Below are positions 3,562 to 27,786 of a stretch of 64,000 bases of DNA, piece by piece. The DNA is from an uncultured Candidatus Saccharibacteria bacterium. Lineage in GTDB: Bacteria; Patescibacteriota; Minisyncoccia; Phycocordibacterales; JABMNX01. The translations under genes and the position numbers were made by a program. The stretch spans positions 6,107 through 70,106 of the forward strand of contig CAZNRH010000002.1 in the NCBI GenBank assembly GCA_964575755.1, given 5' to 3'. The notes below the pieces were generated by a model. The model was given only the letters and a program-made list of their open reading frames with translations, was not told the DNA's origin and did no database searches. Position 1 is the stretch's first letter, and the number at the start of each line of letters is the position of its first letter.

Positions 3562-3569
3562 GGTATTTT

Positions 3570-4148: not shown

Positions 4149-4224
4149 GCTCCAAATGAGAATTAAAGAGTGAGTTATAATAGCACTATAACTTAATCCC
4201 TTATTCTTAATTCTTAATTCATTT

Positions 4225-4635: not shown

Positions 4636-4638
4636 AAT

Positions 4639-4980: not shown

Positions 4981-4996
4981 ATTGCAATATTATTTA

Positions 4997-5350: not shown

Positions 5351-5369
5351 GTTTTTACTATATAAGTGA

Positions 5370-6332: not shown

Positions 6333-6356
6333 AATATATTGTTATAAATTAATAAA

Positions 6357-6965: not shown

Positions 6966-6979
6966 ATATAATTTACTAT

Positions 6980-7414: not shown

Positions 7415-7417
7415 ATA

Positions 7418-7798: not shown

Positions 7799-7807
7799 AT
7801 ATTAAAT

Positions 7808-7921
7808 TTATCCCTGTCTTTGTTTATGACGAGGGTTTGAACAAATAACGTATAAACGCCCCCTTCTACGAACGGTTTGGCATTTACTACATAATTTCTT
7901 TACTGATGATTTTACTTTCAT
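7808..7921 (-). CDS. rpmJ: 50S ribosomal protein L36
   Basis: Hand-translated 37-aa minus-strand [40 protein letters not shown] (C-x2-C...C-x4-H zinc ribbon of L36); below ORF-track size cut-off; canonical position between infA and rpsM. Confidence 0.8.
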
Positions 7922-8120
7922 CCCGTTTAGAGATAGGACACTGATATAAACAATCTTTGTCCTAAAATTAAATGTGTTAATAATATTTTATATTGTTACA
8001 TATATCGTCCCAGTGTCCGGCAGTCGTCTCTGGACGACTTATCTCTAACGGGATTCATTGTGACAACAAAAAATTGCGCTTTCCACATGTTAGGTATAGG
8101 CGGAACTAAATCGGATCCAA

Positions 8121-8342
8121 CTACAAGCGCTTTATTATTCTTCCTTTTCCTCCATAAGGTTCAAGCTCAACAGCTACCTTATCGCCAACTAGCACCTTGA
8201 TACGATATCTTCGCATCTTTCCAGATAGATATGTAAGTAGTTGTTCACCACTTTCTTCTAGAGTTACTCGAAATAGTGTATTAGGCAAAGCCTCATCCAC
8301 TACTCCTAAAACTGGCTCTGGTTTGTTCGCTTTTGTTGACAT
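8121..8342 (-). CDS. infA: Translation initiation factor IF-1
   Basis: 73-aa S1-like OB fold; ...FRVTLE...[23 protein letters not shown]. Confidence 0.9.
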
Positions 8343-8409
8343 TGATTGGAGTTAGGACATAGTACCAGAAACAACCCTACAACGTCAAGGTTTTTCTGAG
8401 GATTAGTCA

Positions 8410-9714: not shown

Positions 9715-9741
9715 ATTTATTCAATATTATACCAATAAGCT

Positions 9742-10935: not shown

Positions 10936-10996
10936 TGGTAAATATTATAACAGTAATTAAAGTTTAATTTTCTTTCCTTTTGTAAAAACAAATTCT

Positions 10997-11023
10997 TTTT
11001 TACTCCAGTATACTGGAGTAAAA
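10997..11023 (-). terminator. Rho-independent terminator after alaS (TTTTTACTCCAG-TATA-CTGGAGTAAAA)
   Basis: Perfect 11-12 bp stem with A/T runs on both sides, 16 nt downstream of the alaS stop. Confidence 0.5.
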
Positions 11024-11038
11024 CCTAACACCTGTAAG

Positions 11039-12895
11039 CTACGTAAGTGTTGCCCGTATCCTCCTTACTCCAGCCGATATAGATTTCTCTTTCATAATTT
11101 TAAAATGACCAAGTTGGTTTGTATTAGTCACATGAGGACCACCACAGAACTCCATATTGAAGTCCCCTATCTTGTAAACTTTCACCACGTCGCCATATTT
11201 CCCCCCGAATACTCCAATAGCTCCAAGCTTTTTTGCCTCCTCAAGAGGAAGTTCTTCGTTGGTCACAGTTAGAGTTGCTTGTATTTGTTCGTTTACAATA
11301 TCCTCTACTTTTTGTTTTTCTTCGTCTGTCATTTTTCTCTCAAATGAAAAGTCGAAACGCATACGCTCTGGAGTAATATTGCTTCCCTTCTGTGTAATAC
11401 CACTACCTAGAACATTTATAAGAGCTTGATTAAGAAGGTGTGTTGCTGTGTGATACTTAATACTCATCTCTCCATGATCCACGAGGCCACCTTTAAACTT
11501 TTGTTCTGAGCCAGAGCGAGAAAGTTCTTGGTGATTTTTCATTTCCTCTTTAAATCCTTTTTCATCTACTTTTATTCCTTTTTCCTCAGCAAGCTCTTCT
11601 GTTAACTCATATGGAAAACCATATGTCGTAAATAAAATAAAAGCATCATGACCAGAAATATCAGTACCACTTAACTTCTTAAACTCTTTCATTCCTTTTT
11701 CAAGAGTCTTTCTAAATTGACCTTCTTCGTTAGCAATAATCTCACATGGTTCATTGATTAGTTTAGGCTCTGTGAAATAATTAGCATAACCGTCTAAATA
11801 TTGACATTCAATATTAGAAGCCAAGCTAGATATTTTATTTATTCCTAAAGAATCCGCATATCTTATGGCACGGCGAAGTAATCTTCGTAACACATATCCT
11901 TGATCTGTGTTTGACGGAGTTACTCCGTCAGCTATCAAGAATGTTGCAGATCTTAAATGGTCTGCCAAAATACGTAAAGCAACCTTTTTATCTTCGTTAG
12001 TGTATGAAACAAAATGCTCATCTTCAATTCTATCAAACAAACACTTAAACACATCAATATTAAACATGTCGGAATCGTCATTAGAGGCTGCTGTTATTCG
12101 CTCTAGTCCGCCGCCAAAATCGACATTCTTTTGTGGGAGTTGCTCAAAGCTCCCGTCTTCTTTCTTTAAGTATTCCATAAAGACATTATTCCCTATTTCC
12201 ATGAATCGTCCACAGTCACAGTTTGGGTGGCAGTGTTCGCCATAGCTTTTATTATGCTCAGTTCCAAAATCGTAAAATATCTCTGAGTCAGGACCACCTG
12301 GTTCTCCTACGGGCATATTATCAGGGACGCCAGAGCGACTCCACCAGTTTTTCTTTGAGTCGTAGTAAAAAATACGCTCACCACCTTTCATGCCTTTTTT
12401 ATATCCATCCTCTTCAGAACCTATTTCTACATCAGTTGTATCAATACCCTTTTCTTTAAAAAGACGCTTCCAGATTTCTACTGATTCAGTATCTTTAGGT
12501 ATACCAAGATCCTTATCCCCTATAAAAGTAGTGACATAAAGCTTGTTTGGATCTAGTTTTATTTCTTTAGTCAGAAATTCAAAAACCCAAGAAAGTTGCT
12601 CTTCTTTAAAATAGTCTCCTAAAGACCAATTACCAAGCATCTCGAAAAAAGTGGTATGACGATTATCCCCGACTTCTTCTATGTCTTCAGCTCGAAAACA
12701 TTTCTGTGAGTCTACAAGACGCGTTCCTGTAGGATGCTTTTCTCCAAGTAAGTATGGAAGTAGCGGTTGCATACCAGAGCCAACAAAAAGTGTGGTAGGG
12801 TCATTCTCTGGGCGCAGAGAAGCAGATGGGATTATTGCATGCCCTCTTTCTTTAAAAAACTTAAAATATTTTTCTCTAACTTCAGAAGTATTCAT
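11039..12895 (-). CDS. alaS: Alanine--tRNA ligase, short form lacking the C-terminal C-Ala domain
   Basis: Class II aaRS catalytic core (FKERGHAIIPSASL, GDYFK), editing-domain HxxxH (HTATHLLNQAL) and CGGPHV motifs; 618 aa vs about 870 aa typical. Confidence 0.9.
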   Translation of the reverse strand: MNTSEVREKYFKFFKERGHAIIPSASLRPENDPTTLFVGSGMQPLLPYLLGEKHPTGTRLVDSQKCFRAEDIEEVGDNRHTTFFEMLGNWSLGDYFKEEQLSWVFEFLTKEIKLDPNKLYVTTFIGDKDLGIPKDTESVEIWKRLFKEKGIDTTDVEIGSEEDGYKKGMKGGERIFYYDSKKNWWSRSGVPDNMPVGEPGGPDSEIFYDFGTEHNKSYGEHCHPNCDCGRFMEIGNNVFMEYLKKEDGSFEQLPQKNVDFGGGLERITAASNDDSDMFNIDVFKCLFDRIEDEHFVSYTNEDKKVALRILADHLRSATFLIADGVTPSNTDQGYVLRRLLRRAIRYADSLGINKISSLASNIECQYLDGYANYFTEPKLINEPCEIIANEEGQFRKTLEKGMKEFKKLSGTDISGHDAFILFTTYGFPYELTEELAEEKGIKVDEKGFKEEMKNHQELSRSGSEQKFKGGLVDHGEMSIKYHTATHLLNQALINVLGSGITQKGSNITPERMRFDFSFERKMTDEEKQKVEDIVNEQIQATLTVTNEELPLEEAKKLGAIGVFGGKYGDVVKVYKIGDFNMEFCGGPHVTNTNQLGHFKIMKEKSISAGVRRIRATLT

Positions 12896-13097
12896 AGAAC
12901 CTTATCTCTAGCAAATATCCAGTAACCATAAAGATAATTCCAAGAATTGCAAGATATTTTTCAAAGCGCATCTCACTTAACACAGCATCGTCTATTTTAT
13001 GCCCCGTAACAATCTTAGAATGAACCTTGATTACAGTGATACCGAGAATAACCTTCCCTATCACCCCAGATGTAATTCCCCAAAAAAGTAAATCCAT
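12882..13097 (-). CDS. Small two-helix membrane protein
   Basis: 71-aa ORF with two hydrophobic segments; 14-nt overlap with the alaS start. Confidence 0.3.
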   Translation of the reverse strand: MDLLFWGITSGVIGKVILGITVIKVHSKIVTGHKIDDAVLSEMRFEKYLAILGIIFMVTGYLLEIRFYEYF

Positions 13098-13141
13098 AAT
13101 ACGTATTAGTATACCCGTGTACAGTCATTTATGCTATTATT

Positions 13142-14410
13142 TTGTTTATGAAATTACACTCAAAAATATTAAAAAATGGACTCACTATTCAGATAATAGA
13201 AATGCCTGGCACTAACGTAGTTACTTCTATGATTCTGGTAGGCGCTGGCTCTAGAAATGAGGATAAAAAAATAAGTGGAATTGCTCATTTTCTGGAACAT
13301 ATGTTTTTCAAAGGAGGTGAGAAGTATAAAACTCCTAAAGAAGTATCTTCTACTATAGATAGTCTAGGAGCTGAGTTTAATGCTTTTACGTCTCAAGAAG
13401 TTGTTGGGTACTACGTCAAATCGGCAAAGCAACATGTTAATACTTCTCTAGATGTACTTAGCGATATGTTAACAAAGGCGCAATTTCCAAAAGAAGAAAT
13501 AGAAAAAGAGCGTGGAGTTATACTTGAAGAAATAGCTATGTATTTAGACTTACCTATGAGGCAAATAGGCTCCGATTTCACTTCGGTATTGTTTGGAGAT
13601 CAATCGCTTGGCTGGGAGATATTAGGTTCTCCTGATGTGATAAAATCGGTCACACAGAAAGATTTCTTTGATTATAAAGATGCACTGTACGTTCCTGAAA
13701 ATATTGTAATTACTTTAGCTGGTTCGGTGACAGAAAAAGACATCGATCGTGTAGAGAAATACTTTACATTTAAAGATGGTAAAAAGACGTATAAACAAAT
13801 ACCTTTTGATTCACAAATACCAGAAAAAAAATTTAATATTAGAGAGAAATCAACTGAACAGTATCATATTAGTCTCGGAGTGCTTGGATTGTCTGAAGAC
13901 GACAAAAGATATCCTATTCAAGAACTACTTTCTACAATTCTAGGAGGAAATATGTCATCTCGTATGTTTCAAAACGTACGCGAAGAGAAAGGTTTATGTT
14001 ACTCAATTCGTACATCTTCAACAGGTTTTTTTGATATAGGAAGATTTACAACAAGAGCAGGAGTAAAGCTAAATAAAGTCTTAGATGCAGTTAATGCAAT
14101 AAGAACAGAATACGATTTAATTGCTAAAGATGGAATAGGTGATGAAGAATTATCAAAAGCAAAATCTTTTCTTGGTGGGAGGATAGACTTAGGCACAGAG
14201 GACACAGAAGAAGTTGCTTTTTATTATGGAGAAAATACTCTTATGCACGGAACTCAAGAATCTCATGAAATAAAAAAACAAAAAATAGATAAAATAACAA
14301 AGGAAGAAGTTAACGCTCTAGCAAAAGAATTATTGCAACCAGAAAGATACCGTTTTGCTGGTATTGGACCAAAGATGGATGAAGAAAAACTCCTTAAACT
14401 AATTTCTTAG
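13142..14410 (+). CDS. M16 family zinc peptidase (insulinase/pitrilysin-like)
   Basis: Inverted zincin motif HFLEHMFFKG plus downstream Glu; two-domain M16 size. Confidence 0.8.
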   Translation: MFMKLHSKILKNGLTIQIIEMPGTNVVTSMILVGAGSRNEDKKISGIAHFLEHMFFKGGEKYKTPKEVSSTIDSLGAEFNAFTSQEVVGYYVKSAKQHVNTSLDVLSDMLTKAQFPKEEIEKERGVILEEIAMYLDLPMRQIGSDFTSVLFGDQSLGWEILGSPDVIKSVTQKDFFDYKDALYVPENIVITLAGSVTEKDIDRVEKYFTFKDGKKTYKQIPFDSQIPEKKFNIREKSTEQYHISLGVLGLSEDDKRYPIQELLSTILGGNMSSRMFQNVREEKGLCYSIRTSSTGFFDIGRFTTRAGVKLNKVLDAVNAIRTEYDLIAKDGIGDEELSKAKSFLGGRIDLGTEDTEEVAFYYGENTLMHGTQESHEIKKQKIDKITKEEVNALAKELLQPERYRFAGIGPKMDEEKLLKLIS

Positions 14411-15610: not shown

Positions 15611-16288
15611 ATGCCAGATTCACACGATATTCATTTGCCAATAGAGTGGAAAAATCTTTTACATGAAGAGTTTAATAAGATATATTTCAAAAGTCTCGCA
15701 CTTAAAGTACGAAGTGAATACACTTCTCAAATAATTTTTCCACCACCAAAACAAATCTTTCGAGCGTTTGAATTATGTTCCCTTGAAGACCTTCGCGTTG
15801 TAATTTTAGGACAAGATCCATACCATACACCTGGAGTTGCTGATGGGCTTGCATTTTCAACGACTTCCCAAAAGAAAATACCACCATCTCTTCAAAATAT
15901 ATTTAAAGAATTAGAGTTAGAATATGGAGAAATTAATATAGACCCAGATCTTACAAGGTGGGCTCAACAAGGGGTCTTACTACTAAACGCTTCTCTTTCA
16001 GTGCGTAGTGGTGAAGCTAACTCACATGCCAGCCATGGTTGGCATACGTTCACTGACGCTGTAATATCAACTATTTCAAAACATAACACACATATAGTAT
16101 TTATGTTGTGGGGGGCTTTCGCTCAAAAAAAATCAGAGCTTATAGATGAAACCAAGCATCTTATTCTTACATCAGTACACCCTTCCCCGCTCTCAGCTCA
16201 TCGAGGGTTCTTTGGTAACAATCACTTTAAAAAAGCTAACGAGTACTTGAATGAAAATAGGCGCAAAGAAATAGACTGGTGCTCCTAA
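15611..16288 (+). CDS. ung: Uracil-DNA glycosylase family 1
   Basis: Water-activating GQDPYH motif, LLLN, HPSPLS loop. Confidence 0.9.
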   Translation: MPDSHDIHLPIEWKNLLHEEFNKIYFKSLALKVRSEYTSQIIFPPPKQIFRAFELCSLEDLRVVILGQDPYHTPGVADGLAFSTTSQKKIPPSLQNIFKELELEYGEINIDPDLTRWAQQGVLLLNASLSVRSGEANSHASHGWHTFTDAVISTISKHNTHIVFMLWGAFAQKKSELIDETKHLILTSVHPSPLSAHRGFFGNNHFKKANEYLNENRRKEIDWCS

Positions 16289-16530
16289 ATAACACCTTCT
16301 TTTTTTAACTTTTTATACTTTAATTGAGTACCTCTGTTGTATTCTCCAAGTGTGCCATCTGACTTTATTACTCTATGACATGGTACAGAGCTATCATGAT
16401 TTCCTTTCATAATACTACCAACTATGCGGTATGCATGTGGCGAACCCGCCTTTTCTGCCACTTCTTTATACGAAAGAGTCTTCCCTCTTGGTATGTTTTT
16501 CACTACTTCTAATACTTTTTCTTTAAACAT
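16285..16530 (-). CDS. ogt: Methylated-DNA--protein-cysteine methyltransferase, C-terminal DNA-binding/active-site domain only
   Basis: PCHRV active-site motif (SSVPCHRVIKSDGTLGEY) in an 81-aa protein. Confidence 0.8.
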   Translation of the reverse strand: MFKEKVLEVVKNIPRGKTLSYKEVAEKAGSPHAYRIVGSIMKGNHDSSVPCHRVIKSDGTLGEYNRGTQLKYKKLKKEGVI

Positions 16531-16536
16531 GAGTGA

Positions 16537-17376
16537 TTAAAATAATGTGTCTGTCTTAACTTCTTCTTTTGATTCTCCTACTTTTTCTTTTTTAAGCTTC
16601 TCAGGTTTCTTAATTTTAGACGCATGTATTGCTTGTAATTTTTTGCCAGAAACTTCTCTGTATGGGCAGTATTCACAGTCGTCTCCTACTTTAGGGATTG
16701 AGCCTGACTTTAAACACCCTTTAATGTTCTGTAAGACTGATTCGATCCAAGTATCTTTCCCTAGATATGGTAGTACTTTTATATCAAATTCTAGTTTATT
16801 ATCAAAAGCGCCAACGTCCGTCTTAGCGTTCACGTAGACAAAATACCCTGTGTCAGAGACCTTGAATCCATTTTGTCGAAAGAGCCACTGATATATTTCC
16901 ATTTGCCGCTTATATCCATCTTGCCAGTCTGCGTCTAAACTCACTTCACCATCTTTACTTGTTGCTTTGTAGTCGACAATAATAAGCTCTCCATTTGTAG
17001 TGACCCATATATCATCTATTGCGCCTGAAACAACAAGTCCTGTTTCTTTATGTAGACAATCGATACCTTCAAAGTTTTCCCGCCATTTGTCAATATCTTT
17101 ATGCTGATATGGCACAGCGTCAACACCAAACTCGGTCATTATTGGATGCGGAGTCTTGTTTGCGCGATGAATATCGAACTCTTTCTTTAAAAGTGTATCG
17201 ACAGCAATGTTGAGGTTGAGTGGGTATCCAGGAGGGCGTTTGGTCCCAAGCTTGTTGTCTAGGTAGAAACATCGAGGACACGACATGAATAATTCTATTT
17301 TAGAGCGAGAAAGGCGCCATTTTTTGCCACCATAATTCCATTCTGCTCTCCTGTTTGGATTGTAGTAACCTGCCAT
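16537..17376 (-). CDS. Cas4/RecB-like PD-(D/E)xK exonuclease with 4-Cys Fe-S cluster (DUF83-like), stand-alone
   Basis: N-terminal CPRC and C-terminal CEYCPY cysteines, motif II Asp (AIDDIW), motif III IVDYK, QxxxY motif (QMEIY). Confidence 0.65.
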   Translation of the reverse strand: MAGYYNPNRRAEWNYGGKKWRLSRSKIELFMSCPRCFYLDNKLGTKRPPGYPLNLNIAVDTLLKKEFDIHRANKTPHPIMTEFGVDAVPYQHKDIDKWRENFEGIDCLHKETGLVVSGAIDDIWVTTNGELIIVDYKATSKDGEVSLDADWQDGYKRQMEIYQWLFRQNGFKVSDTGYFVYVNAKTDVGAFDNKLEFDIKVLPYLGKDTWIESVLQNIKGCLKSGSIPKVGDDCEYCPYREVSGKKLQAIHASKIKKPEKLKKEKVGESKEEVKTDTLF

Positions 17377-17466: not shown

Positions 17467-17976
17467 TTATTTAATGGGCTCTCCAGATTGTTTATCTTTC
17501 ACAACTTTGACACGACTTCTTTTATCAAAAAATGCATCAAGCTTAGTCTCAACAAACCACAGTACAGTAAACACAAGTAGTGTAAGAATTGTTGTAAATA
17601 TTGCTATTGCGTACAGGCTATACCCTACTGCAACTCCTATTCCTGCTGACACCCAGAGTCCTGCAGCAGTTGTTAAACCTTGGAGTGAGTTTTCTTTAAA
17701 GATTATAATACCAGCTCCCAGAAAACCTATACCTGTAATAATCCCCGCAACAACACGCATGGGGTCAAATGAAACCAGTCCAATATATCCAGACGTTACT
17801 TGAATTGAGACTATGGAGAATAAGCATGCACCAAGTGCAACAAGTGCGTATGTGCGTGTTCCTGCTCTTTTGTCAGCGACAACAGAGCGTTCCGTCCCTA
17901 GGATCATACCAAGAAAAACAGCTAAAAGAAGCTGTAAGAATATTACAAATGTTGAATTAAAGAAAATTGGTTCCAT
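17467..17976 (-). CDS. mgtC: MgtC/SapB family membrane protein
   Basis: MgtC N-terminal signature LGTERSVVADKRAGTRTYALVALGA and 4-5 TM helices. Confidence 0.8.
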   Translation of the reverse strand: MEPIFFNSTFVIFLQLLLAVFLGMILGTERSVVADKRAGTRTYALVALGACLFSIVSIQVTSGYIGLVSFDPMRVVAGIITGIGFLGAGIIIFKENSLQGLTTAAGLWVSAGIGVAVGYSLYAIAIFTTILTLLVFTVLWFVETKLDAFFDKRSRVKVVKDKQSGEPIK

Positions 17977-18127: not shown

Positions 18128-18679
18128 TTACTCTACTATAAATGTAGTCAGGATGGGCTGGTTGCCATTTTGTAAGAACGGGAAGTCTGTTTCAAGACTA
18201 AACACTTTATCTCCGTTATCCCGATATAATATAGCTCTATAAGTTATACCAACTTCGGTTGTTCTTAACAATTCTACGTTTCCACTATGTTCTCCTTTGT
18301 CGAATCGTGCTGCACCAAGAGCATTACCTATATGACTTGCTGTTCCCTCATGGATTACAAGCCATCCATCTTCTTCAAATACAGCTTTTTCTACTACAAC
18401 AGACATACCTGCGAGTTGGTTGCGGACTATAATTGCGTCATTGCGTAGCTGTGCTTCCACTGTATTAAGTTCTTGAACAGATGTAGTTAAGTCTTTTTTA
18501 TCTATTTCGCTAACAACTACTTCCACTTGTTCTTTATCTGAAAGAGCATCTTGGGTTGCTGTCCACATCCATACAAAAAAAGCTCCAACAACTACCCCAA
18601 TTAAAAACACTCCAAAAAGTTTTATATTAAAATTTCGTGATTCAGTATTCATATGTGTATATTTACTAATATGCTCCAT
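18128..18679 (-). CDS. Hypothetical membrane-anchored protein
   Basis: One N-terminal TM helix then a soluble domain; no recognisable motif. Confidence 0.4.
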   Translation of the reverse strand: MEHISKYTHMNTESRNFNIKLFGVFLIGVVVGAFFVWMWTATQDALSDKEQVEVVVSEIDKKDLTTSVQELNTVEAQLRNDAIIVRNQLAGMSVVVEKAVFEEDGWLVIHEGTASHIGNALGAARFDKGEHSGNVELLRTTEVGITYRAILYRDNGDKVFSLETDFPFLQNGNQPILTTFIVE

Positions 18680-18680
18680 T

Positions 18681-19511
18681 CTACACTCCAGCCCCTGGTT
18701 GACACAAGTCCCCTATTTCATTAAGAATTTCAGGAATTAATCTCGATTCAACCCCATGTGTCTCCAAAAGGCTGTTATTATCTTTTATATCTCGACACAA
18801 TAATACTTTATTTTCGATAAGTCTCTTCCTTTCTTTTGAAGGTATTTTAGTAAGACATGTGATGGGGTGAAGTCCTGTTTCTTCTATAAGTGAAAATAGG
18901 TTTCCTTTTAGGGGGTATTCCCAACTTATCATCTTTAAGCCGGCACATTTACCATATGACACTGCATTTTTTGTAAATTTTGTGTTTGTGATAAGGATAC
19001 CTTCGTCTACTGCACCAGATTTAATAAGGTCATCAAAACGTGCGTATACGTAAAGCGCCACCTTCAAATCTGATTTTATACCTTGACTGTTATGAAATTT
19101 TATTTCTGCGCCATATATCTTTTTATCCTTCTTTGCAAACAAGTCGACTTCGTGCACTGCGCACTTCCCTTTTAACATAACTCCAGTTGAAGATTCAAAC
19201 CCTTTTGCGCGATAAATCTCTGCAATAAAGTCTTCAAGTGGGAATCCGCTTGGTCCAAGATCAAAAACAGCTTTTTTAAGAGAGTATTTTGCCGCAGTCA
19301 CTCCTGTGTCTTTATCACGAAGTAGCTCAAAAGCATTTCTATAGATTTCCTTTGTGGTCATGCCATCAACAAGTCTAGAAGTTATACCTGCTAACACTTC
19401 TTTTATTATGGATTTCGACGCACCAGAACGCTCTAGAGAGCGTTCTAGCTTTGACGCTTCAAACGGCTCCGTACTTCCATCTGCTTTTTTAATTAAAATC
19501 TCTTTAGTCAT
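18681..19511 (-). CDS. ATP-cone domain fused to Mrr-like restriction-endonuclease (PD-(D/E)xK) domain
   Basis: N-terminal NrdR-type ATP-cone (ILIKKADGSTEPFEASKLERSLER); C-terminal HEVDLF...AEIKF D...ExK nuclease core. Confidence 0.6.
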   Translation of the reverse strand: MTKEILIKKADGSTEPFEASKLERSLERSGASKSIIKEVLAGITSRLVDGMTTKEIYRNAFELLRDKDTGVTAAKYSLKKAVFDLGPSGFPLEDFIAEIYRAKGFESSTGVMLKGKCAVHEVDLFAKKDKKIYGAEIKFHNSQGIKSDLKVALYVYARFDDLIKSGAVDEGILITNTKFTKNAVSYGKCAGLKMISWEYPLKGNLFSLIEETGLHPITCLTKIPSKERKRLIENKVLLCRDIKDNNSLLETHGVESRLIPEILNEIGDLCQPGAGV

Positions 19512-19532: not shown

Positions 19533-19988
19533 CTATATCATTTCATTAAATTCACTCAAATGATGCACTGTGTATGTTGGTTTCCCAGTCTCTTCATTTG
19601 GTAATTCATCTTTAAATTTTCCATTTCGAAACCAAATTGTTGTAGTTCCGTTTTGATTACCCCATTTAATTCCTCTTATAACCCTGTCGTCGACTATTAC
19701 CGCTTCTTCGGGTTTGAGTTCTAGAGCCCTCAATGTTTTTGCGTACATACTATCTTTATCTTTTGTATCAAAGAGAATAGACTCGAAGTATTGTTCTAGA
19801 TTATTTTCTTTTATAATACGTAATCGTTCTTGTATTTTTTCTTCGCCAGCAGTTGCTAAAGCAACGATTGCTAAAATATATTTTTGAGATAGATGATCAA
19901 GTACTTCTATGGTGTCACTGAACAATCTCTCAGTCTCTGGATTATAAAGGGTTCTTCCCCAATCAAAAATAATAAGTTTCTTATTCAT
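19533..19988 (-). CDS. HAD-superfamily hydrolase-like protein
   Basis: N-terminal LIIFDWGRTL (HAD motif I-like) and C-terminal VDDR / GTTTIW motifs. Confidence 0.45.
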   Translation of the reverse strand: MNKKLIIFDWGRTLYNPETERLFSDTIEVLDHLSQKYILAIVALATAGEEKIQERLRIIKENNLEQYFESILFDTKDKDSMYAKTLRALELKPEEAVIVDDRVIRGIKWGNQNGTTTIWFRNGKFKDELPNEETGKPTYTVHHLSEFNEMI

Positions 19989-20000
19989 AAAGACTGAAAG

Positions 20001-21062
20001 CTATTTTATAATACCTCCACCTAAACACTCATCTTTATTATATATAACAATAGATTGTCCACGAGCTAGTCCATGTTGTGGCTCTTTAAATACAACTTTC
20101 TCTCCTTCTATTTTACATTGATATAGTTCTCCACGATGTCTAATGCGGGCTGTGTATTCTTTCCCTGCTTCAGGAACTTTTGTTATCCAATTTATCTGCT
20201 CTAATAGGACTTCTCTTTTATTAAAATCTTTATCGTTTGGTTTATGAGAAACGGTGATGATATTTTTTTGTACATCTTTACTTACAATATAGTACGGCTT
20301 TCTGTCAGTGTTTTTCTCAAAAATTATAAAACCATGGCGTTGGCCGAGCGTGTATATTTCAGCACCATTGTGGGAGCCCACTATATCTCCCTTTGTATTA
20401 AATACATAGCCCTCTTTTAAATCTATATAATGACCAAGAAATTCTTCGAGATCCACGTGACCTAGGAAACAAATACCTTGGCTGTCTTTCTTGTCTGCGG
20501 TTGACAGATTATATTTCTTAGCTAGTTTACGTACTTTGTCTTTTTCCAAGCATCCGACAGGAAACAGTACCGAGCCCAGTTCTTTCTGTGTAAGAGTCCA
20601 TAAAAAGTATGTCTGGTCTTTGTTGTGGTCTACGCCCTGCAACATCTTAAATTGCTCACCATCTTTAACAACCTGAGCATAATGACCTGTTGCTATATAG
20701 TCTGCCCCGCTTTCTTTCGCAAACTTCATAAAGCTTCCAAATTTAATATATTTATTACACATCACATCAGGGTTTGGGGTTCGCCCTTTTTTATACTCAG
20801 AAATCATATAGTCTGCGACTTCTTCCTTGTACTCTTTTTCAAGGTCTAGTGTTAGGAACGGTATATCGAGCCGTACACAGACACGCATGGCATCTGTTCT
20901 TTCCTTTTCCCAATCACACTCTAGGAATTCAGGTTGCCACACCTTAATAAAGACTCCAACTACGTTATATCCAGCATCTTTAAGGAGCGCTGCGGAAACA
21001 GACGAGTCTACTCCACCACTAACTCCTACAAAGACTGTTCTATTTTCATTTTTCTTATTCAC
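20001..21062 (-). CDS. mnmA: tRNA-specific 2-thiouridylase
   Basis: PP-loop SGGVDSSV, catalytic Cys pattern and C-terminal barrel; full MnmA length. Confidence 0.9.
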   Translation of the reverse strand: MNKKNENRTVFVGVSGGVDSSVSAALLKDAGYNVVGVFIKVWQPEFLECDWEKERTDAMRVCVRLDIPFLTLDLEKEYKEEVADYMISEYKKGRTPNPDVMCNKYIKFGSFMKFAKESGADYIATGHYAQVVKDGEQFKMLQGVDHNKDQTYFLWTLTQKELGSVLFPVGCLEKDKVRKLAKKYNLSTADKKDSQGICFLGHVDLEEFLGHYIDLKEGYVFNTKGDIVGSHNGAEIYTLGQRHGFIIFEKNTDRKPYYIVSKDVQKNIITVSHKPNDKDFNKREVLLEQINWITKVPEAGKEYTARIRHRGELYQCKIEGEKVVFKEPQHGLARGQSIVIYNKDECLGGGIIK

Positions 21063-21082
21063 GAGATAGTTATATCACAACT

Positions 21083-22114
21083 TTAGTCTATATACTGCGC
21101 TTTCTTTCTGGAGTGCTCTGCGAAGGTTTTACTAAAATGCGTTATCCCGCTCTTATCTGCTAAATAGTAGTAATAGCCGTGTTTATTTGGAGTTACTGCT
21201 GCTAGGATTGAATCTAGTCCAGGGTTTGCAATAGGACCGGGTGGGAGTCCTCTATATTTATACGTGTTATACGGAGAATCTATTTGTAAATCTTCAAGAG
21301 ATAGTTGAGAAGTACCTTTTCCAAGAAGATATGCAAATGATGCATCAACCTGAAGTGCCATATTAACATCTATACGATTCCAAAGAACTCCAGAGATTTC
21401 GCGTTTTGTTTCAAAGTCCATGGCTTCTAACTCAATAATAGATGCCATGGTTATAATGTCTTCTATAGAAACCCCTGAACTTTTCATAAAATCTTCCATT
21501 TCTTTAGACACTTCTTTTAAGCGAGTATTAAAATTATCTTTCATTGTTTTGTACACTTCCTCCTCACTTACATTTGGTAAGAAATAATACGTGTCTGGAA
21601 ACAAGTACCCCTCGTCACTTTTAGATAAAGATATAAACTTCGCCATATCAAATGTTTCTATTGTGTTAGATAGATGTAGCGCAACTTCTTTGTTGTTTAA
21701 CCCCTCAGGAACCAATACCGTTATTGGAGTTAATCCAAAAACTCCACGAGTTATCCTGTAAGCGAGCGTGAATACTCCTTCTTTCTCATCTAAATAGTAT
21801 TCTCCCGCATGTGAGCTTTTCTCCCCTCCTAATAATATTATTCCTGCTCTAAATAGAAATGGAGAGCGTATAGCCCCAGATGATTCAAAATTCACAGTGA
21901 TATCTTTTAGTGTAGAGCCTTCTTCTACTTTAATGATTTGTTTTATTGGAAAATCAGATGGCACTCGAATCAGGGAGATATAAAAAGAGAAAGTTAGAAC
22001 AATAACTGAAAGTGTTATAGCTTTTTTTACGCGTGACCCAAACAATACTCTCAGTATGTGGACTGGTAAGTTTTCTTTTTGTGATATTTCTTGTAAGAGT
22101 TCGTCTGTGTTCAT
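21083..22114 (-). CDS. mltG: Endolytic murein transglycosylase MltG/YceG
   Basis: N-terminal TM helix; YceG signature DSPYNTYKYRGLPPGPIANPG. Confidence 0.85.
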   Translation of the reverse strand: MNTDELLQEISQKENLPVHILRVLFGSRVKKAITLSVIVLTFSFYISLIRVPSDFPIKQIIKVEEGSTLKDITVNFESSGAIRSPFLFRAGIILLGGEKSSHAGEYYLDEKEGVFTLAYRITRGVFGLTPITVLVPEGLNNKEVALHLSNTIETFDMAKFISLSKSDEGYLFPDTYYFLPNVSEEEVYKTMKDNFNTRLKEVSKEMEDFMKSSGVSIEDIITMASIIELEAMDFETKREISGVLWNRIDVNMALQVDASFAYLLGKGTSQLSLEDLQIDSPYNTYKYRGLPPGPIANPGLDSILAAVTPNKHGYYYYLADKSGITHFSKTFAEHSRKKAQYID

Positions 22115-22134
22115 TTCTCTCTATGATGGCTTTT

Positions 22135-23484
22135 TTATCCAATAGGTAGATTAGATGGAGCTTCTCCTTTTGTAGACTGAACACGTGGAAGTGTTGGTGC
22201 TTGTACAACTGACCCGGGGAAATGAAATATGGTAGCTAGCTCCTCTACATTAAGTACAAAAGGAGGGGTTTTGTATGGCTCGTGGAAATAAGAGCGACGC
22301 TTATAAGCATCAATAATTTCTCTTTTATTTCTCTCTTTTTTCCACCCAAAAAGGTCTTGCCATGGGTAGTCATACCCTATAAACCATCTTGTAGGTGCAA
22401 ACCCGTTAAGGCTCCCTGAATTAAGTTGTTTAAATGAAGAGGTTAACCCAGCAATATTTGATGGATTAAATTTGCCTGACTTAGAAATATAGATACCGCG
22501 TATTCCGATGTCAAATCCTAGTTTTGAAATACTTCGCTCAAGAGCTTTTATAGTATCCGTCTCACCAGGTGTAGGATTAGGAAATCCTGACCTTTCTTTG
22601 CCTTGCTCATCAGTATATTTAGGTGTTGCATTATCTCGTATCTCATCTATCTCTTCCTTTGCTTCTTCTTTCCAGCTCGTAGTTTGTGTAAATAAAGACC
22701 CTCCTTTGTACTTTCTATCATCTTTTAACTTATCTTTATTTGTACGTATTAAAATCTGGAACCACAACTGTTCATCAGGACCGATATGTCCAAGGAATTC
22801 AAAGAAACCTGCCATCGGATCTATTTTAAACTCCTCTTTTGGGTCTTTATCAAGCCCATAGTCAATATATGTCTTGATTGGGTAAGCATCTTTCTTTGTT
22901 AATTTAAAATCGCATCCCCATAAATCATATGCGTCAGTGCTGTACCGTAGCTTTTTTGCATAATCATCTACTTCATGGATTTCTACCATAGGATATTGAC
23001 CGTATATTTGAGCCTCTACAACATCTCTAAGGAATTTACTAGTGTATATATAGAAGTGTATTTCTCCGCCGAGAGAAACCATCTCTAGTGAGTACCAAGA
23101 TCTTACCTTGCCTTGAAAACTCCTATTAATAAAAGTGGTTTCTCCCATACCAATATGAATATTACTTAAAACTGTTTCCATAGCTAGTGGGGAGCGTACT
23201 ACCTCACGTGGTAAACGGATTTCAAGTAAAACATACTCTTGTTTGTTTATGGACTTAGCGCGAATATATTTAATCCATATTTTCCAAAATACAACAACTA
23301 ATACAAAAGGTAACCAAACTGGAGAAGATAAGAAAATTGTTTCAAACGTTGGCCCCAGATTTAATTCAAGTATAGAAGAAGTAAACCATAGTAGTCCAAG
23401 AAATACAGCTACTAAAAACCAAGCAGAAGAAAATTCAAAACCTTCGAGTGTTTTACTTACGTCTTTTAATGGGTTTACAGACAT
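22135..23484 (-). CDS. Hypothetical membrane protein (two N-terminal TM helices, large soluble domain)
   Basis: 449-aa ORF with good coding texture; no recognised domain. Confidence 0.5.
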   Translation of the reverse strand: MSVNPLKDVSKTLEGFEFSSAWFLVAVFLGLLWFTSSILELNLGPTFETIFLSSPVWLPFVLVVVFWKIWIKYIRAKSINKQEYVLLEIRLPREVVRSPLAMETVLSNIHIGMGETTFINRSFQGKVRSWYSLEMVSLGGEIHFYIYTSKFLRDVVEAQIYGQYPMVEIHEVDDYAKKLRYSTDAYDLWGCDFKLTKKDAYPIKTYIDYGLDKDPKEEFKIDPMAGFFEFLGHIGPDEQLWFQILIRTNKDKLKDDRKYKGGSLFTQTTSWKEEAKEEIDEIRDNATPKYTDEQGKERSGFPNPTPGETDTIKALERSISKLGFDIGIRGIYISKSGKFNPSNIAGLTSSFKQLNSGSLNGFAPTRWFIGYDYPWQDLFGWKKERNKREIIDAYKRRSYFHEPYKTPPFVLNVEELATIFHFPGSVVQAPTLPRVQSTKGEAPSNLPIG

Positions 23485-23558
23485 TGTGTTAAATTATACA
23501 ACCTGTTTACTCAAGAGCAAAGCGATTGATTTGCACTAAAGCGCCGCGACTTATACTC

Positions 23559-23660
23559 AATCGTTCCACTCTTGAATAAGTCGGTTGTAAACAGCAGTGC
23601 TCTGTGAGTACAACCGATTTCTCTAGAAGTGCAACCAGTTCGTTCAAGAGTGAAACGATT
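23559..23660 (-). repeat. Nested inverted repeats in the 5' leader of the 22135-23484 gene
   Basis: 17-nt arms AATCGTTCCACTCTTGA / TCAAGAGTGAAACGATT (16/17 match) enclosing a perfect TCGGTTGTA...TACAACCGA 9-bp hairpin. Confidence 0.3.
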
Positions 23661-23741
23661 GGATACAAACAGCAGTGCAAAGTCCATGTATAGTGAAAAA
23701 TAGAATAGTTATTATTACAGTGGCTCGGACACTCAAAACAT

Positions 23742-23768
23742 AAACACTCCAGTATAGCTGGAGTGTTT
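23742..23768 (-). terminator. Rho-independent terminator after the sigma-r4/HARE-HTH gene (AAACACTCCAG-TATAG-CTGGAGTGTTT)
   Basis: Perfect 11-bp stem with U-runs on both strands, 25 nt below the stop at 23793. Confidence 0.5.
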
Positions 23769-23792
23769 ATGTTTTTAGAGATGGTTTAATAA

Positions 23793-24866
23793 TTAAACTA
23801 TTGAGTACTTACCTCCTTTATCTTTCTTAAATACTGTAACATCCTGTAGGTTTACTAAAATAGTATTATCCTTTACGTAACGCTCTTTTCGTATTTTATC
23901 AATAAGGTCTTCTTTGGTTAAAGGACCTTCTTTTGAAAGGATGCTACGAAGTACGTCTTTTACTACTCCGCTTGAGTACCCCCATTCCTCAAGGGCATAA
24001 AGACCTCTTCCTACAAGCACAAATCGTTTATCTTTGATAAGTTCATTGTGACAAGTTGCAACATGAGCCTTTTTATTAAATAAGTCAGTAATCATACGTG
24101 CAACTTCTGTAAAATGCATTGGTGAGCCATGACGTTTTATTGCAAGATACGCAAAATCCCTCATTCCTTTTGCTCGTACGTTTGAAGATGTAGTTTGACC
24201 CCATTCACCAAGTGGGTTCTTGGAGATTGTTTTTGAAAGAGATAACCAGCGACGTAATATTTCGTCTTGTAGATATTGTTCATTAAGATGCTTAACTTCG
24301 TCTAGAAATGAATCAATTAGTTTTGATTCTACAACAAGCTCATCATCTGAAAGATTCGAATAAAGATTACGTAAAGCTTTATGAACATCTTCAGCAAGAT
24401 CTTCATCTATATACCATCGTGGTGTAAATTCAGAATCTTCTTTTTTATATACAAAGTGATTACCCAAAACTAGTAAGAAATGGATATGGTTTTGTGTTCC
24501 ACTGTCCTTAGAGATACTCGAGAGTAGTTCTTCTTCTGAAATAACTCCTCCAAGTGAATCGATATATTTTTCTAGTTCGTCGAAAATGCCAGTTGTACTT
24601 TCAAATATGTCTGATTTACGGATACTAGCTAAGGCATGGTTTTCAATCTGGCGGACTCGTTCTCGAGTGATGCCATATCTTTCACCAATAGACTCTAGAG
24701 TCTTTTTCTCAGTATCTTTCCCAAGACCATAACGACTAGTAAGAATCTCTCCAGATCTCTCTGGAAGAGCTCCAAGAAGTGTCTTGGTTATTTGCTTTGG
24801 TTTGAATGTAATTTTCGCCATAAATATATTGATAAGTGTTGAATAGTGTACTCTAATTTCTGTCAT
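23793..24866 (-). CDS. DNA-binding protein with N-terminal sigma-70 region 4 HTH and C-terminal HARE-HTH winged helix
   Basis: LESIGERYGITRERVRQIENHAL (sigma r4 recognition helix); C-terminal HFTEVARMITDL...RFVLVGRGLYALEEWGY (HARE-HTH as in RNAP delta); start may be the internal Met at about 24821. Confidence 0.55.
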   Translation of the reverse strand: MTEIRVHYSTLINIFMAKITFKPKQITKTLLGALPERSGEILTSRYGLGKDTEKKTLESIGERYGITRERVRQIENHALASIRKSDIFESTTGIFDELEKYIDSLGGVISEEELLSSISKDSGTQNHIHFLLVLGNHFVYKKEDSEFTPRWYIDEDLAEDVHKALRNLYSNLSDDELVVESKLIDSFLDEVKHLNEQYLQDEILRRWLSLSKTISKNPLGEWGQTTSSNVRAKGMRDFAYLAIKRHGSPMHFTEVARMITDLFNKKAHVATCHNELIKDKRFVLVGRGLYALEEWGYSSGVVKDVLRSILSKEGPLTKEDLIDKIRKERYVKDNTILVNLQDVTVFKKDKGGKYSIV

Positions 24867-24903
24867 TTGTCTAGTGCTTCGTCAAGTACCACGTCCTATA
24901 CGG

Positions 24904-27786
24904 CTAAATAACTATATTTATAAGCTTATTTTCGACATAGAATGTCTTTTTAGCCTCACCTTCTAGCCATTTAGAAAATTTGCTGTCAGCCCGAACCAGC
25001 TTTATAGCATCATCCTTACTTATCCCAGAATTAGCTTCTATGGTTCCTCGTGTCTTACCGTTTATCTGTACGGCTATAAAGACAGTGCCAGAAACAAGTT
25101 TAGATTCGTCAAATTGTGGCCATTTTTCAAGATGGATAGAGGTCACATCGTTTTTCTTTAGAATTTTCGCCTGCAAGTCAAACCAAAGTTCTTCTGTTAT
25201 ATGTGGAGCAAATGGTGCAACAAGCTTAAATATTGTTTCCAATTGTGGAGTTGTGATTTGACGGCTCTTAGTGTTAGTTACTTTCACTTTATGCGATATA
25301 GTTTTATCTTCTTCATATATATTATTCAAGAGAACCATTAAAGAAGATACTGCTGTATTGAATTTCATTTGATCAATATCATCATTCACTTTTTTAATTG
25401 TATTATGTAATAAATTAGAGAAAGAGTTGTCCCATTCATCTAAATCATAATCTTTTCCATTATCATCTATATAATTCTTTTTCCAATCGTTGTGGTAATA
25501 ATTCCACATCTTTTCTAGAAACCTTCTTGCTCCAGCAATATTATCTGTATTCCATATTATTGTCTGATCAAAAGGACCCATAAACATTTCATATATACGC
25601 AAAGTATCAGCCCCAACTGTTTTTATAACATAATCTGGGTTTATAGCATTACCTTTTGATTTAGACATTTTAGACCCATCTTCAGCTAAAATCATTCCCT
25701 GGGAAGTTCTTTTCATATATGGTTCTGAGGATGGAACAATACCGATGTCATATAAAAATTTATGCCAAAATCGTGAATACAGTAAATGAAGAGTTGTATG
25801 TTCCATACCCCCGTTGTACCAATCTACAGGGGTCCAATATTTTAACTTATCTTTTCCTGCAAATTCATCCTCATTTTTAGGATCAGTATATCGTAAGAAA
25901 TACCACGAAGAACCAGCCCAATTAGGCATCGTGTCTGTTTCTCTTTTTGCGGAACCATTACATTTTGGACAAGTAGTATTTACCCAATCTTCAGCAGAAG
26001 CTAAAGGAGATTCCCCATCATCAGTTGGTTTATAATTCTCAACTTCTGGAAGCTCTAAAGGAAGACTGTCTTCTGGTACTGGAACCCACCCACATTTTCC
26101 ACAATTAATCATCGGTATCGGTTCTCCCCAATATCTTTGACGTGAGAATATCCAATCGCGAAGCTTGTATGTGGTCTTCATCTTTCCGCCGACAAACTTA
26201 GTAATCTTTTCCTTAGCATCTTCACTTGTTAGTCCATCAAATTTTTCGGAATTCTCTAACATTCCTTCATTAGAATGAATAATTATATTTTTATAAAATC
26301 CATTTTCTGCTTTTGCTAGCCAACTCCAAACATTCCTAGCTTTCCACTCTAATCCAACTTTTTTATTATGAAAAAATTCATAGCATTTTTTATCAACTTC
26401 AGCCCAATTGCTTGAGTCAAGCTTATATGTCGAAATACTATTATCAGTATTTTTGAAATTAAATATAATTCCAATAGGTCCAACGTATTCATTCCAAAAT
26501 CCCACAGGCAATTTCTCTTGCACCAATTTTTCAAAAGCAACTATTGTGCTTACAGGGAACTCAACTTTCTTTATTATTTCATCATATTTATCGTTATTGG
26601 TTTTAATCTCTTCAACGATTTTTACCCCAATTGACTCTAAATCAGCTTTTTTAATGTTATGTCCCCAAACAATACTTCGAACTATGTCTTTATTCGCTAT
26701 CACTCGTTGTATTGGCAAATCAAATTTATCTGCGAACTGATAATCACGCTCATCATGCGCCGGCACTGCCATAATTGCTCCTGTTCCATACCCAGAAAGT
26801 ACATAGTCCGCTATAAAAATCGGAATCTCTTCGCTATTTGCAGGATTTATCGCTTTCACACCCTTTAATTCGACCCCCGTCTTTTCTTTTCCTTCTGCAG
26901 TACGTTCAATTTCAGGCTTACTCACAGCTTCCTTAACATATTCCTCCACCTCTTTATAATTCGTAATTCCTAACTTATTATCCTTTAACAGCTCATGTTC
27001 TGGGGCCAAGACTACATAAGTAGCTCCAAATAATGTGTCGGGGCGCGTCGTAAAGACTTTTACTTTTTTATTACCTCCGGCAATTCTAAAATCTATTTCA
27101 GCTCCCTCGCTCCTTCCGATCCAATTCCTTTGTTGAGTTTTTATTCGATCAAGGTAATCCACTTCATCAAGATCATCATAAAGTCTTTGGGCGTAATTGG
27201 TTATCTTCAACATCCACTGTTCTTTTTCTCGCCTTTCAGTTTCTCCTCCACACCGTTCACATAACCCGTCTATTACTTCTTCATTTGCTAATCCAGTTTT
27301 GCAATCAATACACCAATTTATTGGCATCTTTGATTTGTATGCTAACCCCTTTTCAAAAAGTTTAATAAAAATCCACTGCGTCCATTTATAATATTCTGGG
27401 TCAGTTGTATTTATCTCCCTATCCCAGTCAAAGGAAAATCCCATCGATTTGAGTTGTTCTCTAAACTTATCTGTATTCTGTTTTGTAACTTCCTTAGGAT
27501 GTATACCTGTCTTAAGTGCATAATTTTCTGTAGGTAATCCAAAAGCATCCCACCCTATTGGGTAAAGAACATTAAATCCTTCCGCTCTCTTTTTCCGTGC
27601 GACGATATCTAAGGCCGTGTAGCTTCTTGCGTGTCCAACATGTAATCCATCTCCAGAAGGATAAGGAAACTCAACCAATAAATACATTTTTTCTTTTTTT
27701 GAACCGTCTATGGCTTTATTCTGCCCATCTTCAGCCCATTTATCTTGCCATTTTTTTTCAACTTCCTTATGATTATACAAAGACAT
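24904..27786 (-). CDS. leuS: Leucine--tRNA ligase
   Basis: HVGHARSY (HIGH) and KMSKSKGN motifs, CP1 editing domain (TRPDTLFGATYVVLAPEH); 960 aa. Confidence 0.95.
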   Translation of the reverse strand: MSLYNHKEVEKKWQDKWAEDGQNKAIDGSKKEKMYLLVEFPYPSGDGLHVGHARSYTALDIVARKKRAEGFNVLYPIGWDAFGLPTENYALKTGIHPKEVTKQNTDKFREQLKSMGFSFDWDREINTTDPEYYKWTQWIFIKLFEKGLAYKSKMPINWCIDCKTGLANEEVIDGLCERCGGETERREKEQWMLKITNYAQRLYDDLDEVDYLDRIKTQQRNWIGRSEGAEIDFRIAGGNKKVKVFTTRPDTLFGATYVVLAPEHELLKDNKLGITNYKEVEEYVKEAVSKPEIERTAEGKEKTGVELKGVKAINPANSEEIPIFIADYVLSGYGTGAIMAVPAHDERDYQFADKFDLPIQRVIANKDIVRSIVWGHNIKKADLESIGVKIVEEIKTNNDKYDEIIKKVEFPVSTIVAFEKLVQEKLPVGFWNEYVGPIGIIFNFKNTDNSISTYKLDSSNWAEVDKKCYEFFHNKKVGLEWKARNVWSWLAKAENGFYKNIIIHSNEGMLENSEKFDGLTSEDAKEKITKFVGGKMKTTYKLRDWIFSRQRYWGEPIPMINCGKCGWVPVPEDSLPLELPEVENYKPTDDGESPLASAEDWVNTTCPKCNGSAKRETDTMPNWAGSSWYFLRYTDPKNEDEFAGKDKLKYWTPVDWYNGGMEHTTLHLLYSRFWHKFLYDIGIVPSSEPYMKRTSQGMILAEDGSKMSKSKGNAINPDYVIKTVGADTLRIYEMFMGPFDQTIIWNTDNIAGARRFLEKMWNYYHNDWKKNYIDDNGKDYDLDEWDNSFSNLLHNTIKKVNDDIDQMKFNTAVSSLMVLLNNIYEEDKTISHKVKVTNTKSRQITTPQLETIFKLVAPFAPHITEELWFDLQAKILKKNDVTSIHLEKWPQFDESKLVSGTVFIAVQINGKTRGTIEANSGISKDDAIKLVRADSKFSKWLEGEAKKTFYVENKLINIVI

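Follow-up and report, generated by a model that had tools for sequence, protein, structure and literature searches.

A gene in the 64,000-nucleotide stretch of contig CAZNRH010000002.1 analysed here (in the following, the window), which was assembled from an uncultured Candidatus Saccharibacteria bacterium, encodes a protein in which an ATP-cone domain is fused to an intact nuclease domain of the Mrr/AF1548 type. ATP-cones regulate ribonucleotide reductases (RNR) and NrdR via ATP/dATP-dependent oligomerisation, and to our knowledge these are the only proteins for which such a regulatory function has been established experimentally; we know of no experimentally characterised nuclease that is controlled by an ATP-cone. 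We read the gene, with about even chances of being right, as a housekeeping gene for a nucleotide-gated nuclease of the AF1548 family and not as a restriction or defence gene. The ATP-cone would bind an adenine nucleotide and control the attached PD-(D/E)XK endonuclease, probably through a nucleotide-dependent change of the oligomeric state in analogy to RNR and NrdR, and a small C-terminal domain resembling helix-hairpin-helix (HhH) modules would help to grip the nucleic-acid substrate. The nuclease would cut DNA, in keeping with the HhH-like domain, or possibly RNA, in keeping with an RNA-type β-CASP protein encoded next to some relatives. Cleavage would thereby be tied to the nucleotide or energy status of the cell and serve the turnover or salvage of DNA or RNA or, alternatively, a step of repair, and the gene would be a vertically inherited housekeeping gene of a genome of the Paceibacteria type within the candidate phyla radiation (CPR). 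That the cone binds a nucleotide, in which direction it regulates the nuclease, what the substrate is and what role the protein has in the cell are all matters that we infer. With an ATP-cone-controlled nuclease, this kind of allosteric switch would be seen to act in nucleic-acid degradation too.

The domain composition was established with curated profiles (Table 1). In an hmmscan search of Pfam, the ATP-cone model PF03477 matched residues 6-78 of the window protein with an E-value of 4.8e-8 and 33.9 bits (gathering cut-off 25.8), or with 37.5 bits when the isolated region of residues 1-86 was used, and the Mrr_cat model PF04471 matched residues 89-194 with an E-value of 1.2e-5 and 25.9 bits (cut-off 21), the scores of homologues with this model being 23.5-39.1 bits. 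Since both domains exceed their curated thresholds, the fusion goes beyond chance. An earlier note on this DNA had called an N-terminal ATP-cone and, in the second half of the protein, an Mrr-like nuclease with a D...ExK core; both calls were borne out by the profile searches, and the motifs quoted in the note were located as H120-E121-V-D123-L-F and A-E136-I-K138-F. Its domain reading stood as far as these two domains are concerned, but it overlooked a third one, AF1548-like_C, and a solved homologue, AF1548 of Archaeoglobus fulgidus (Protein Data Bank (PDB) entry 1Y88). The AF1548-like_C model PF22357 gave 16.6-19.5 bits at residues 216-266 of the window protein, which is under the cut-off of 23.9, and 31.2 bits, above the cut-off, in the homologue from Owenweeksia (L077). 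No match to the Mrr_N winged-helix domain was obtained for the window protein at E ≤ 0.1 in Pfam, its N-terminus being the ATP-cone, and no zinc ribbon precedes the cone, which begins at residue 5. NCBIfam contains no model for the family of the window protein; an identical protein (P0001) occurs in public assemblies.

An AlphaFold2 (AF2) model of the window protein, which was built on an alignment of 37 sequences, has a pLDDT of 92 and a pTM of 0.85 and is composed of a β-hairpin followed by helices (the ATP-cone, with strands 6-8 and 14-16 and helices 19-28, 33-46 and 53-67, pLDDT above 90), an α-β-β-β-α-β core (helix 92-102, strands 106-114, 119-128 and 131-138, helix 149-165 and strand 170-175) and a helical C-terminal domain. 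In a phmmer search of PDB sequences, 1Y88 was retrieved with an E-value of 8e-29 over query residues 95-264, and the same entry was the top match of Foldseek against the PDB (E 2.8e-15), followed by the PD-(D/E)XK nucleases NucS/EndoMS, MspJI, AspBHI, Can2 and Cdn1. The matches to NucS/EndoMS (2VLD, E 7e-4; 5GKE, E 3e-3) cover the core alone, with 106-107 aligned columns. For the ATP-cone, Foldseek returned NrdA of Escherichia coli, Pseudomonas aeruginosa and Aquifex as well as E. coli NrdR, with a probability of 1.0 and E-values of 2e-3 to 1e-2 for the two proteobacterial NrdA proteins and NrdR, and a profile of the N-terminal domain derived from 20 diverse members reached NrdD (8P23, E 7.9e-4) and NrdR (7P37, E 2.7e-3) in the PDB. 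Designed helical-repeat proteins, which headed the results of this profile search, were dismissed as repeat artefacts with no single significant stretch. The C-terminal domain modelled in isolation (pLDDT 76) had its best fold match in the C-terminus of AF1548 (E 8e-3, TM-score 0.67); further weak matches (E 0.5-5, TM-score about 0.55-0.6) were the N-terminal HhH domain of RAD51/RadA, the C-terminal domain of the RNA polymerase α subunit, BAF, Pol β and Hel308. The domain is probably an HhH-like or SAM-like nucleic-acid-binding module, an assignment that is suggestive, as these fold matches are not significant.

The homologue AF1548 (PF04471 plus PF22357) shares with the window protein the D...ExK triad, the C-terminal domain, homology over residues 95-264 and the motifs HExD, ExKFHN, TNT, W-YP and HP-T, at an identity of about 31-40%. 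It is a structural-genomics protein described as a "protein of unknown function" and was predicted to be a restriction endonuclease with the catalytic residues D38, E51 and K53 in a paper of 2007 on the Global Ocean Sampling (GOS) data (PMC1821046). D123, E136 and K138 of the window protein are the same triad as that predicted for AF1548 (PMC1821046). The chain in the crystal corresponds to the window protein from residue 95 onwards and lacks both the ATP-cone and the LGPSGF motif that follows it in the window protein. When the AF1548 sequence was used as query, the best match was a protein of 265 residues with 99% identity (P0390), whose N-terminus, MLRVRKRDGRLEEF, is a canonical ATP-cone (VRKRDGR) with the LGPSGF motif behind it, and nearly all archaeal relatives found in this search have the three-domain architecture. 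Because P0390 and the archaeal relatives carry the ATP-cone, the gene model of the deposited AF1548 has most probably been cut short at the N-terminus, and the sole structure of the family would thus be one without the regulatory domain.

Residue conservation was analysed in an alignment of 149 dereplicated full-length members from the fetched loci, comprising 67 CPR-type, 18 Bacteroidota/Chlamydiota-type and 64 archaeal-type proteins. G86, P87, G89, E93, E121, D123, E136, K138, R158, D161, T177, W197 and P216 are invariant in all 149. They include the catalytic triad and E93, the acidic residue that opens the first nuclease helix, and the LGPSGF-type signature was automatically picked as the most conserved peptide pattern. 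The nucleotide-contacting residues of ATP-cones are K9, R10, K21 and T55 in the numbering of E. coli NrdA. In the family, K21 is kept in 149 of 149 members, G12 in 148, T53 in 147 and K9 in 144, and the canonical arginine after K9 (KRDG in RNR and NrdR) is alanine in the window protein and in 105 of the 149 members, the 11 proteins with arginine all being archaeal-type. The N-terminal module has the Pfam domain, the predicted hairpin-and-helices fold and the Lys9, Lys21 and Thr53 equivalents in common with the ATP-cones of RNR (NrdA, NrdD) and NrdR, but its effector is a nuclease instead of a reductase or a zinc-ribbon DNA binder, and Arg10 is replaced by alanine; the working principle of these proteins, in which nucleotide-dependent oligomerisation switches an attached module, may apply to the window protein as well. 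To judge from the alignment, both modules are under strong purifying selection across the three lineage groups. Since the catalytic and the ATP-cone residues are kept, the protein is likely to be a working nuclease that is regulated by nucleotides, and to speak of a "nuclease gated by adenine nucleotides" is a reasonable inference.

The fusion is a member of a very large, catalogued, yet uncharacterised family and is not new as an architecture. Word-indexed searches returned 3,219 clusters at 90% identity when started from the window protein and 6,551 when started from a member of the Chlamydiota, and an exhaustive search of representatives at 50% identity returned 1,185 at E ≤ 1e-3 and 414 at E ≤ 1e-30, of which the top 150 are nearly all 265-335 residues long and align end to end. 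When each GTDB species was represented by one genome, a scan gave at least 598 confirmed loci. Carriers are found among the Patescibacteria (Kaiser-, Zambryski-, Yonath-, Taylor-, Nomura- and Campbellbacteria and others), the Bacteroidota, including the isolates Cyclobacterium lianum, Chitinophaga eiseniae, Psychroserpens ponticola and Pontibacter actiniarum, the Chlamydiota and many Archaea (Archaeoglobi, Geoglobus, Ferroglobus, Korarchaeota, Bathyarchaeia, Aenigm-, Nano- and Altiarchaeales). The family is thus present in Archaea and in no fewer than three bacterial phyla, and among Paceibacteria-type CPR it apparently belongs to the core genome. Practically all members, whether from Archaeoglobi, Korarchaeota, Bathyarchaeia, DPANN, CPR, Bacteroidota or Chlamydiota, have the three domains, which argues that sensor and nuclease work as a unit. 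In public databases, members are named "restriction endonuclease", "ATP cone domain-containing protein", "ATPase" or "Holliday junction resolvase-like predicted endonuclease", and one name already combines restriction endonuclease, ATP cone domain-containing and AF1548-like protein; the fusion had thus already been catalogued. Beyond the GOS prediction (PMC1821046), a literature search found no paper on the ATP-cone/nuclease fusion.

In Patescibacteria contigs with homologues of 49-58% identity, the genes for leucyl-tRNA synthetase (LeuRS), a Sigma70_r4/HARE-HTH protein, a DUF8128 protein, YceG/MltG and MnmA precede the nuclease gene in a common order, and what follows it is variable (DUF7282 protein, MgtC, PDDEXK_1 nuclease, Ogt, methyltransferase, uracil-DNA glycosylase (UDG), HD hydrolase, M3 peptidase and alanyl-tRNA synthetase). 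When 89 related loci were surveyed by tblastn with the neighbours of the gene in the window as queries, MnmA was found upstream on the same strand in 75 and YceG in 63, and PDDEXK_1 was found in 48, MgtC in 40, Ogt in 36 and UDG in 9. The conservation of this block in Patescibacteria indicates a vertically inherited core gene and not a defence island.

The three neighbours on either side of the gene were also subjected to unbiased clustering in 151 dereplicated loci (67 CPR, 18 Bacteroidota/Chlamydiota-type and 66 archaeal-type), and this bore out the strong synteny in CPR. In Bacteroidota and Chlamydiota, the gene often heads a cassette of four abutting or overlapping genes, located on chromosomes of Bacteroidota and on two plasmids (Table 1), which encode, in this order, the ATP-cone nuclease, a β-CASP/RMMBL hydrolase, an archaeal-type thymidine phosphorylase and a PRK07199-type ribose-phosphate diphosphokinase. 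The β-CASP proteins of the cassettes are nearest to aCPSF1/Cas14-type RNA-cleaving enzymes, with scores under the equivalog cut-offs, and the phosphorylases score 659-679 bits with PRK04350 (cut-off 434) and 490-507 bits with the AMP phosphorylase model (cut-off 535). The cassette proteins of Criblamydia and Owenweeksia are 66-73% identical, which suggests that the cassette has moved by horizontal transfer. The β-CASP gene alone follows the nuclease gene in L058, L094 (Chlamydiia) and L095, and in the clustering a β-CASP partner was present in 7-8 of the 18 Bacteroidota/Chlamydiota-type loci. A literature search for the four-gene cassette found nothing. Further neighbours in Bacteroidota are genes for PFK, a 2-hydroxyacid dehydrogenase, a GAPDH-like protein, Usp, PPK2, MgtC/DUF4010, AAA_28 and a P-type ATPase, and the Criblamydia plasmid also carries genes for phosphoketolase, glycogen phosphorylase and acetate kinase. 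The Usp/PFK/PPK2-type gene set (L096, L097, L072, L053 and L091) is reminiscent of hypoxia or dormancy regulons.

It is because of the cassette and the PFK/PPK2-type neighbours in Bacteroidota and Chlamydiota that we connect the family with nucleotide metabolism. A more specific and distinctly tentative proposal is that the nuclease opens nucleic-acid breakdown when adenine-nucleotide pools fall, which would make it the third ATP-cone-controlled class after RNR and NrdR. If this is true, the enzyme would be the first of a mobile "nucleic acid to ribose-phosphate/PRPP" salvage operon in Bacteroidota and Chlamydiota, acting ahead of a β-CASP nuclease, an AMP/thymidine-phosphorylase-type enzyme and a phosphoribosyl pyrophosphate (PRPP) synthetase, and in nucleotide-auxotrophic CPR it would belong to the core enzymes and adjust the degradation of scavenged or own DNA and RNA to the nucleotide supply. 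As a rule, CPR bacteria do not synthesise nucleotides de novo; they depend on scavenged nucleotides, and the function of the gene bears on the nucleotide supply of these ultra-small symbionts. The recurrent operon of β-CASP, phosphorylase and PRPP synthetase genes provides a concrete hypothesis that is testable in cultivable Bacteroidota.

The earlier note had suggested a possible nucleotide-sensing defence or DNA-damage effector. In defence, the protein would be an anti-phage effector of the type IV/Mrr-like or abortive-infection kind whose nuclease would be freed when an infection perturbs the ATP/dATP pools. Single-gene systems that combine a sensor with a nuclease are a common defence design, the protein has the Mrr_cat fold, the defence nucleases MspJI, AspBHI, Can2 and Cdn1 are among its fold neighbours, and copies are borne by 2 of 72,556 plasmids, of which that of Criblamydia also encodes an AbiE toxin-antitoxin pair within a few genes of the family member. 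We nevertheless consider a defence function improbable: PADLOC (PADLOC-DB v2) gave no match for the window protein or its downstream neighbour, tblastn detected no homologue in the 50,697 phage records of INPHARED, no relative was present in the viral contigs of IMG/VR, and the Mrr_N domain is missing. Moreover, conservation is extreme, with about 50% identity and identical flanking housekeeping genes across a bacterial class, and the gene-neighbourhood survey for defence islands yielded housekeeping and metabolic neighbours across the 151 dereplicated loci, among them genes for tRNA modification, the cell wall, aminoacyl-tRNA synthetases and energy metabolism. The window protein resembles Mrr and other type IV enzymes in its Mrr_cat core, which contains the D-(E/Q)xK motif and is followed by a strand of the TNT type, but it is encoded by a vertically inherited core gene and is devoid of their modification reader and defence context; it shares the catalytic fold of Mrr and is no Mrr orthologue. 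The annotation as "restriction endonuclease" is probably misleading.

A structure-specific nuclease of DNA repair or recombination, like Hjc, NucS/EndoMS or enzymes of the RecB family, is a possible but rather unlikely alternative; it would act together with PDDEXK_1, Ogt and UDG, and its ATP-cone would restrict cutting to times when (d)NTP pools permit repair synthesis. This would agree with the frequencies of the three repair-type genes downstream in CPR loci given above, with the Foldseek match to NucS/EndoMS, with the name "Holliday junction resolvase" given to relatives in some sources, a few of which have a precomputed match to the Hjc family PF01870, and with the similarity of the C-terminal fold to HhH domains of RAD51/RadA and DNA polymerases. 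The cores of NucS/EndoMS and archaeal Hjc are indeed the nearest solved ones after AF1548, but the domain architectures differ: a NucS-type N-terminal dimerisation/DNA-binding domain was detected neither by Pfam nor in the AF2 model (a clamp-binding motif was not searched for), and the window protein gave no match to Hjc at E ≤ 0.1, while that of the L088 homologue was no better than E 0.14. The linkage to repair genes is furthermore confined to the syntenic region of Patescibacteria, and since that to ogt, the Cas4-like nuclease gene and ung is absent in the Bacteroidota, Chlamydiota and archaeal-type relatives, whose loci are without repair neighbours, their proximity may reflect inherited gene order and not a shared function. 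Very improbable in our view is an NrdR-like transcription factor, in which the ATP-cone senses and the nuclease fold and HhH domain bind DNA without cleaving it. NrdR itself is an ATP-cone with a DNA-binding module, it was reached by both Foldseek and the profile search, weak matches to NA-iREase1 were obtained, and catalytically dead PD-(D/E)XK domains serve as binding modules elsewhere; however, the invariance of E93, D123, E136 and K138 is unexpected for a non-catalytic domain, the zinc ribbon is lacking, and no nrd genes were seen near family members in the loci examined.

Several observations also weigh against the housekeeping, nucleotide-gated nuclease that we prefer. According to tblastn, the partners of the four-gene cassette occur neither in the 64-kb window nor within about 6 kb of the gene in any of the CPR loci, so that for the organism of the window the salvage idea is an extrapolation. 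The archaeal-type loci have no dominant partner, the largest neighbour cluster comprising 10 of 66, and the synteny in CPR could be purely historical. The replacement of Arg10 by alanine in most members means that the ligand may not be ATP or dATP, or that the affinity may be low, and as the resemblance of the C-terminal domain to HhH modules is statistically insignificant, the substrate may be either DNA or RNA. Finally, a literature search found no biochemical report for any member of the family.

Table 1 Features of the ATP-cone/nuclease gene, its surroundings in the window and the four-gene cassettes in other genomes
Feature	Sequence	Positions	Strand	Basis or remarks
Whole gene, ATP-cone / Mrr_cat (AF1548-type PD-(D/E)XK) / AF1548-like_C protein	Window	18681-19511	(-)	ATG start, 276 aa
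ATP-cone domain, aa 1-84, β-hairpin plus helices	Window	19260-19511	(-)	PF03477, Foldseek, AF2 model
Family signature L-G-P-S-G-F-P-[FL]-E, aa 85-93, linking ATP-cone to nuclease	Window	19233-19259	(-)	Conservation
PD-(D/E)XK core, Mrr_cat, aa 89-194, α-β-β-β-α-β topology	Window	18930-19247	(-)	PF04471, model, Foldseek
Catalytic codon D123	Window	19143-19145	(-)	
Catalytic codon E136	Window	19104-19106	(-)	
Catalytic codon K138	Window	19098-19100	(-)	
AF1548-like_C helical domain, aa 198-270	Window	18702-18920	(-)	PF22357, fold matches
DUF7282 protein, transmembrane-anchored, downstream	Window	18128-18679	(-)	Pfam DUF7282, E 6.4e-10
MgtC	Window	17467-17976		Pfam
PDDEXK_1/Cas4-like nuclease	Window	16537-17376	(-)	Pfam; PADLOC Cas4 models, E 4.7e-12
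Ogt, 81 aa, DNA_binding_1 domain only, PCHRV active-site motif	Window	16285-16530	(-)	Pfam
UDG	Window	15611-16288		Pfam
HAD-family hydrolase, 151 aa, between MnmA and the nuclease gene	Window	19533-19988	(-)	
LeuRS / Sigma70_r4+HARE-HTH / DUF8128 / YceG(MltG) / MnmA block preceding the gene	Window	20001-27786		Also in L001-L009
Four-gene cassette headed by ATP-cone nuclease	L077, Owenweeksia	5992-10657		
Four-gene cassette	L088, Cyclobacterium lianum	6001-10616		
Four-gene cassette	L090, Pontibacter megaplasmid, 204 kb	1972-6597		
Four-gene cassette	L091, Criblamydia plasmid, 89 kb	8995-13602		

The neighbours that the earlier note had listed, namely a membrane-anchored protein, ogt, a Cas4-like nuclease gene and ung, are all present according to Pfam (Table 1). 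A single base lies between the TAG stop codon of the nuclease gene and the ATG of the DUF7282 gene, and GGAG stands shortly before this ATG, an arrangement that points to translational coupling of the two genes; the DUF7282 gene is likewise adjacent in L001, L002, L005 and L009 and occupies position +1 in 16 of the 67 dereplicated CPR loci. A scan for promoters and terminators near the gene gave results at chance level, and in the 64-kb window Rfam was matched by one tRNA-Ala and by nothing else. Downstream of the nuclease gene, those for PDDEXK_1 and Ogt usually keep the same order, and in the CPR loci that were examined no annotated neighbour was a cas gene. The HAD hydrolase gene was found in 0 of the 89 related loci, and the two short contigs that carry it (L092 and L093) encode an identical nuclease. 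The hydrolase shows weak, sub-threshold similarity to the pyrimidine 5'-nucleotidases PynA and YjjG, and the position of a nucleotidase next to a nucleotide-sensing nuclease may be meaningful or a coincidence.

MgtC genes lie within two genes of the family member in 32 of the 67 CPR loci, and a direct count elsewhere gave one MgtC and two CorA. In Ferroglobus (L098), the gene overlaps that of CorA (5958-7001) upstream by one base and that of a DUF389 protein downstream, and in a Bacteroidales contig (L087) CorA is encoded two genes away from the family member. The proximity to Mg2+-related genes is not general in the family, and we regard it as an observation and not as an explanation by way of Mg2+ homeostasis. 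P-type ATPase genes occur in 10 of the 18 Bacteroidota/Chlamydiota loci, and the top neighbour clusters of the archaeal-type loci consist of apparently unrelated metabolic genes, judged by sequence signatures.

Within the protein, C117 and C189 are present in 84 of the 85 CPR and Bacteroidota/Chlamydiota members and in 52 and 51, respectively, of the 64 archaeal-type ones, and C239 and C270 are nearly invariant in CPR and Bacteroidota and present in 18 and 22 of the 64 archaeal-type members. A universal Fe-S or Zn cluster formed by these four cysteines is unlikely, C117 and C189 being kept in about 80% of the archaeal-type members and C239 and C270 being lineage-specific; they might form a disulfide or a metal site restricted to certain lineages. 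The upstream block stands before the gene in most loci, and its 357-residue Sigma70_r4/HARE-HTH protein and DUF8128 protein are uncharacterised and strictly syntenic. Contigs labelled Nitrospira (L007) and KSB1 (L009) carry the identical block and are probably mis-binned, and many loci labelled "uncultured Candidatus Saccharibacteria" show the Paceibacteria-type block, their bin labels probably being wrong or generic.

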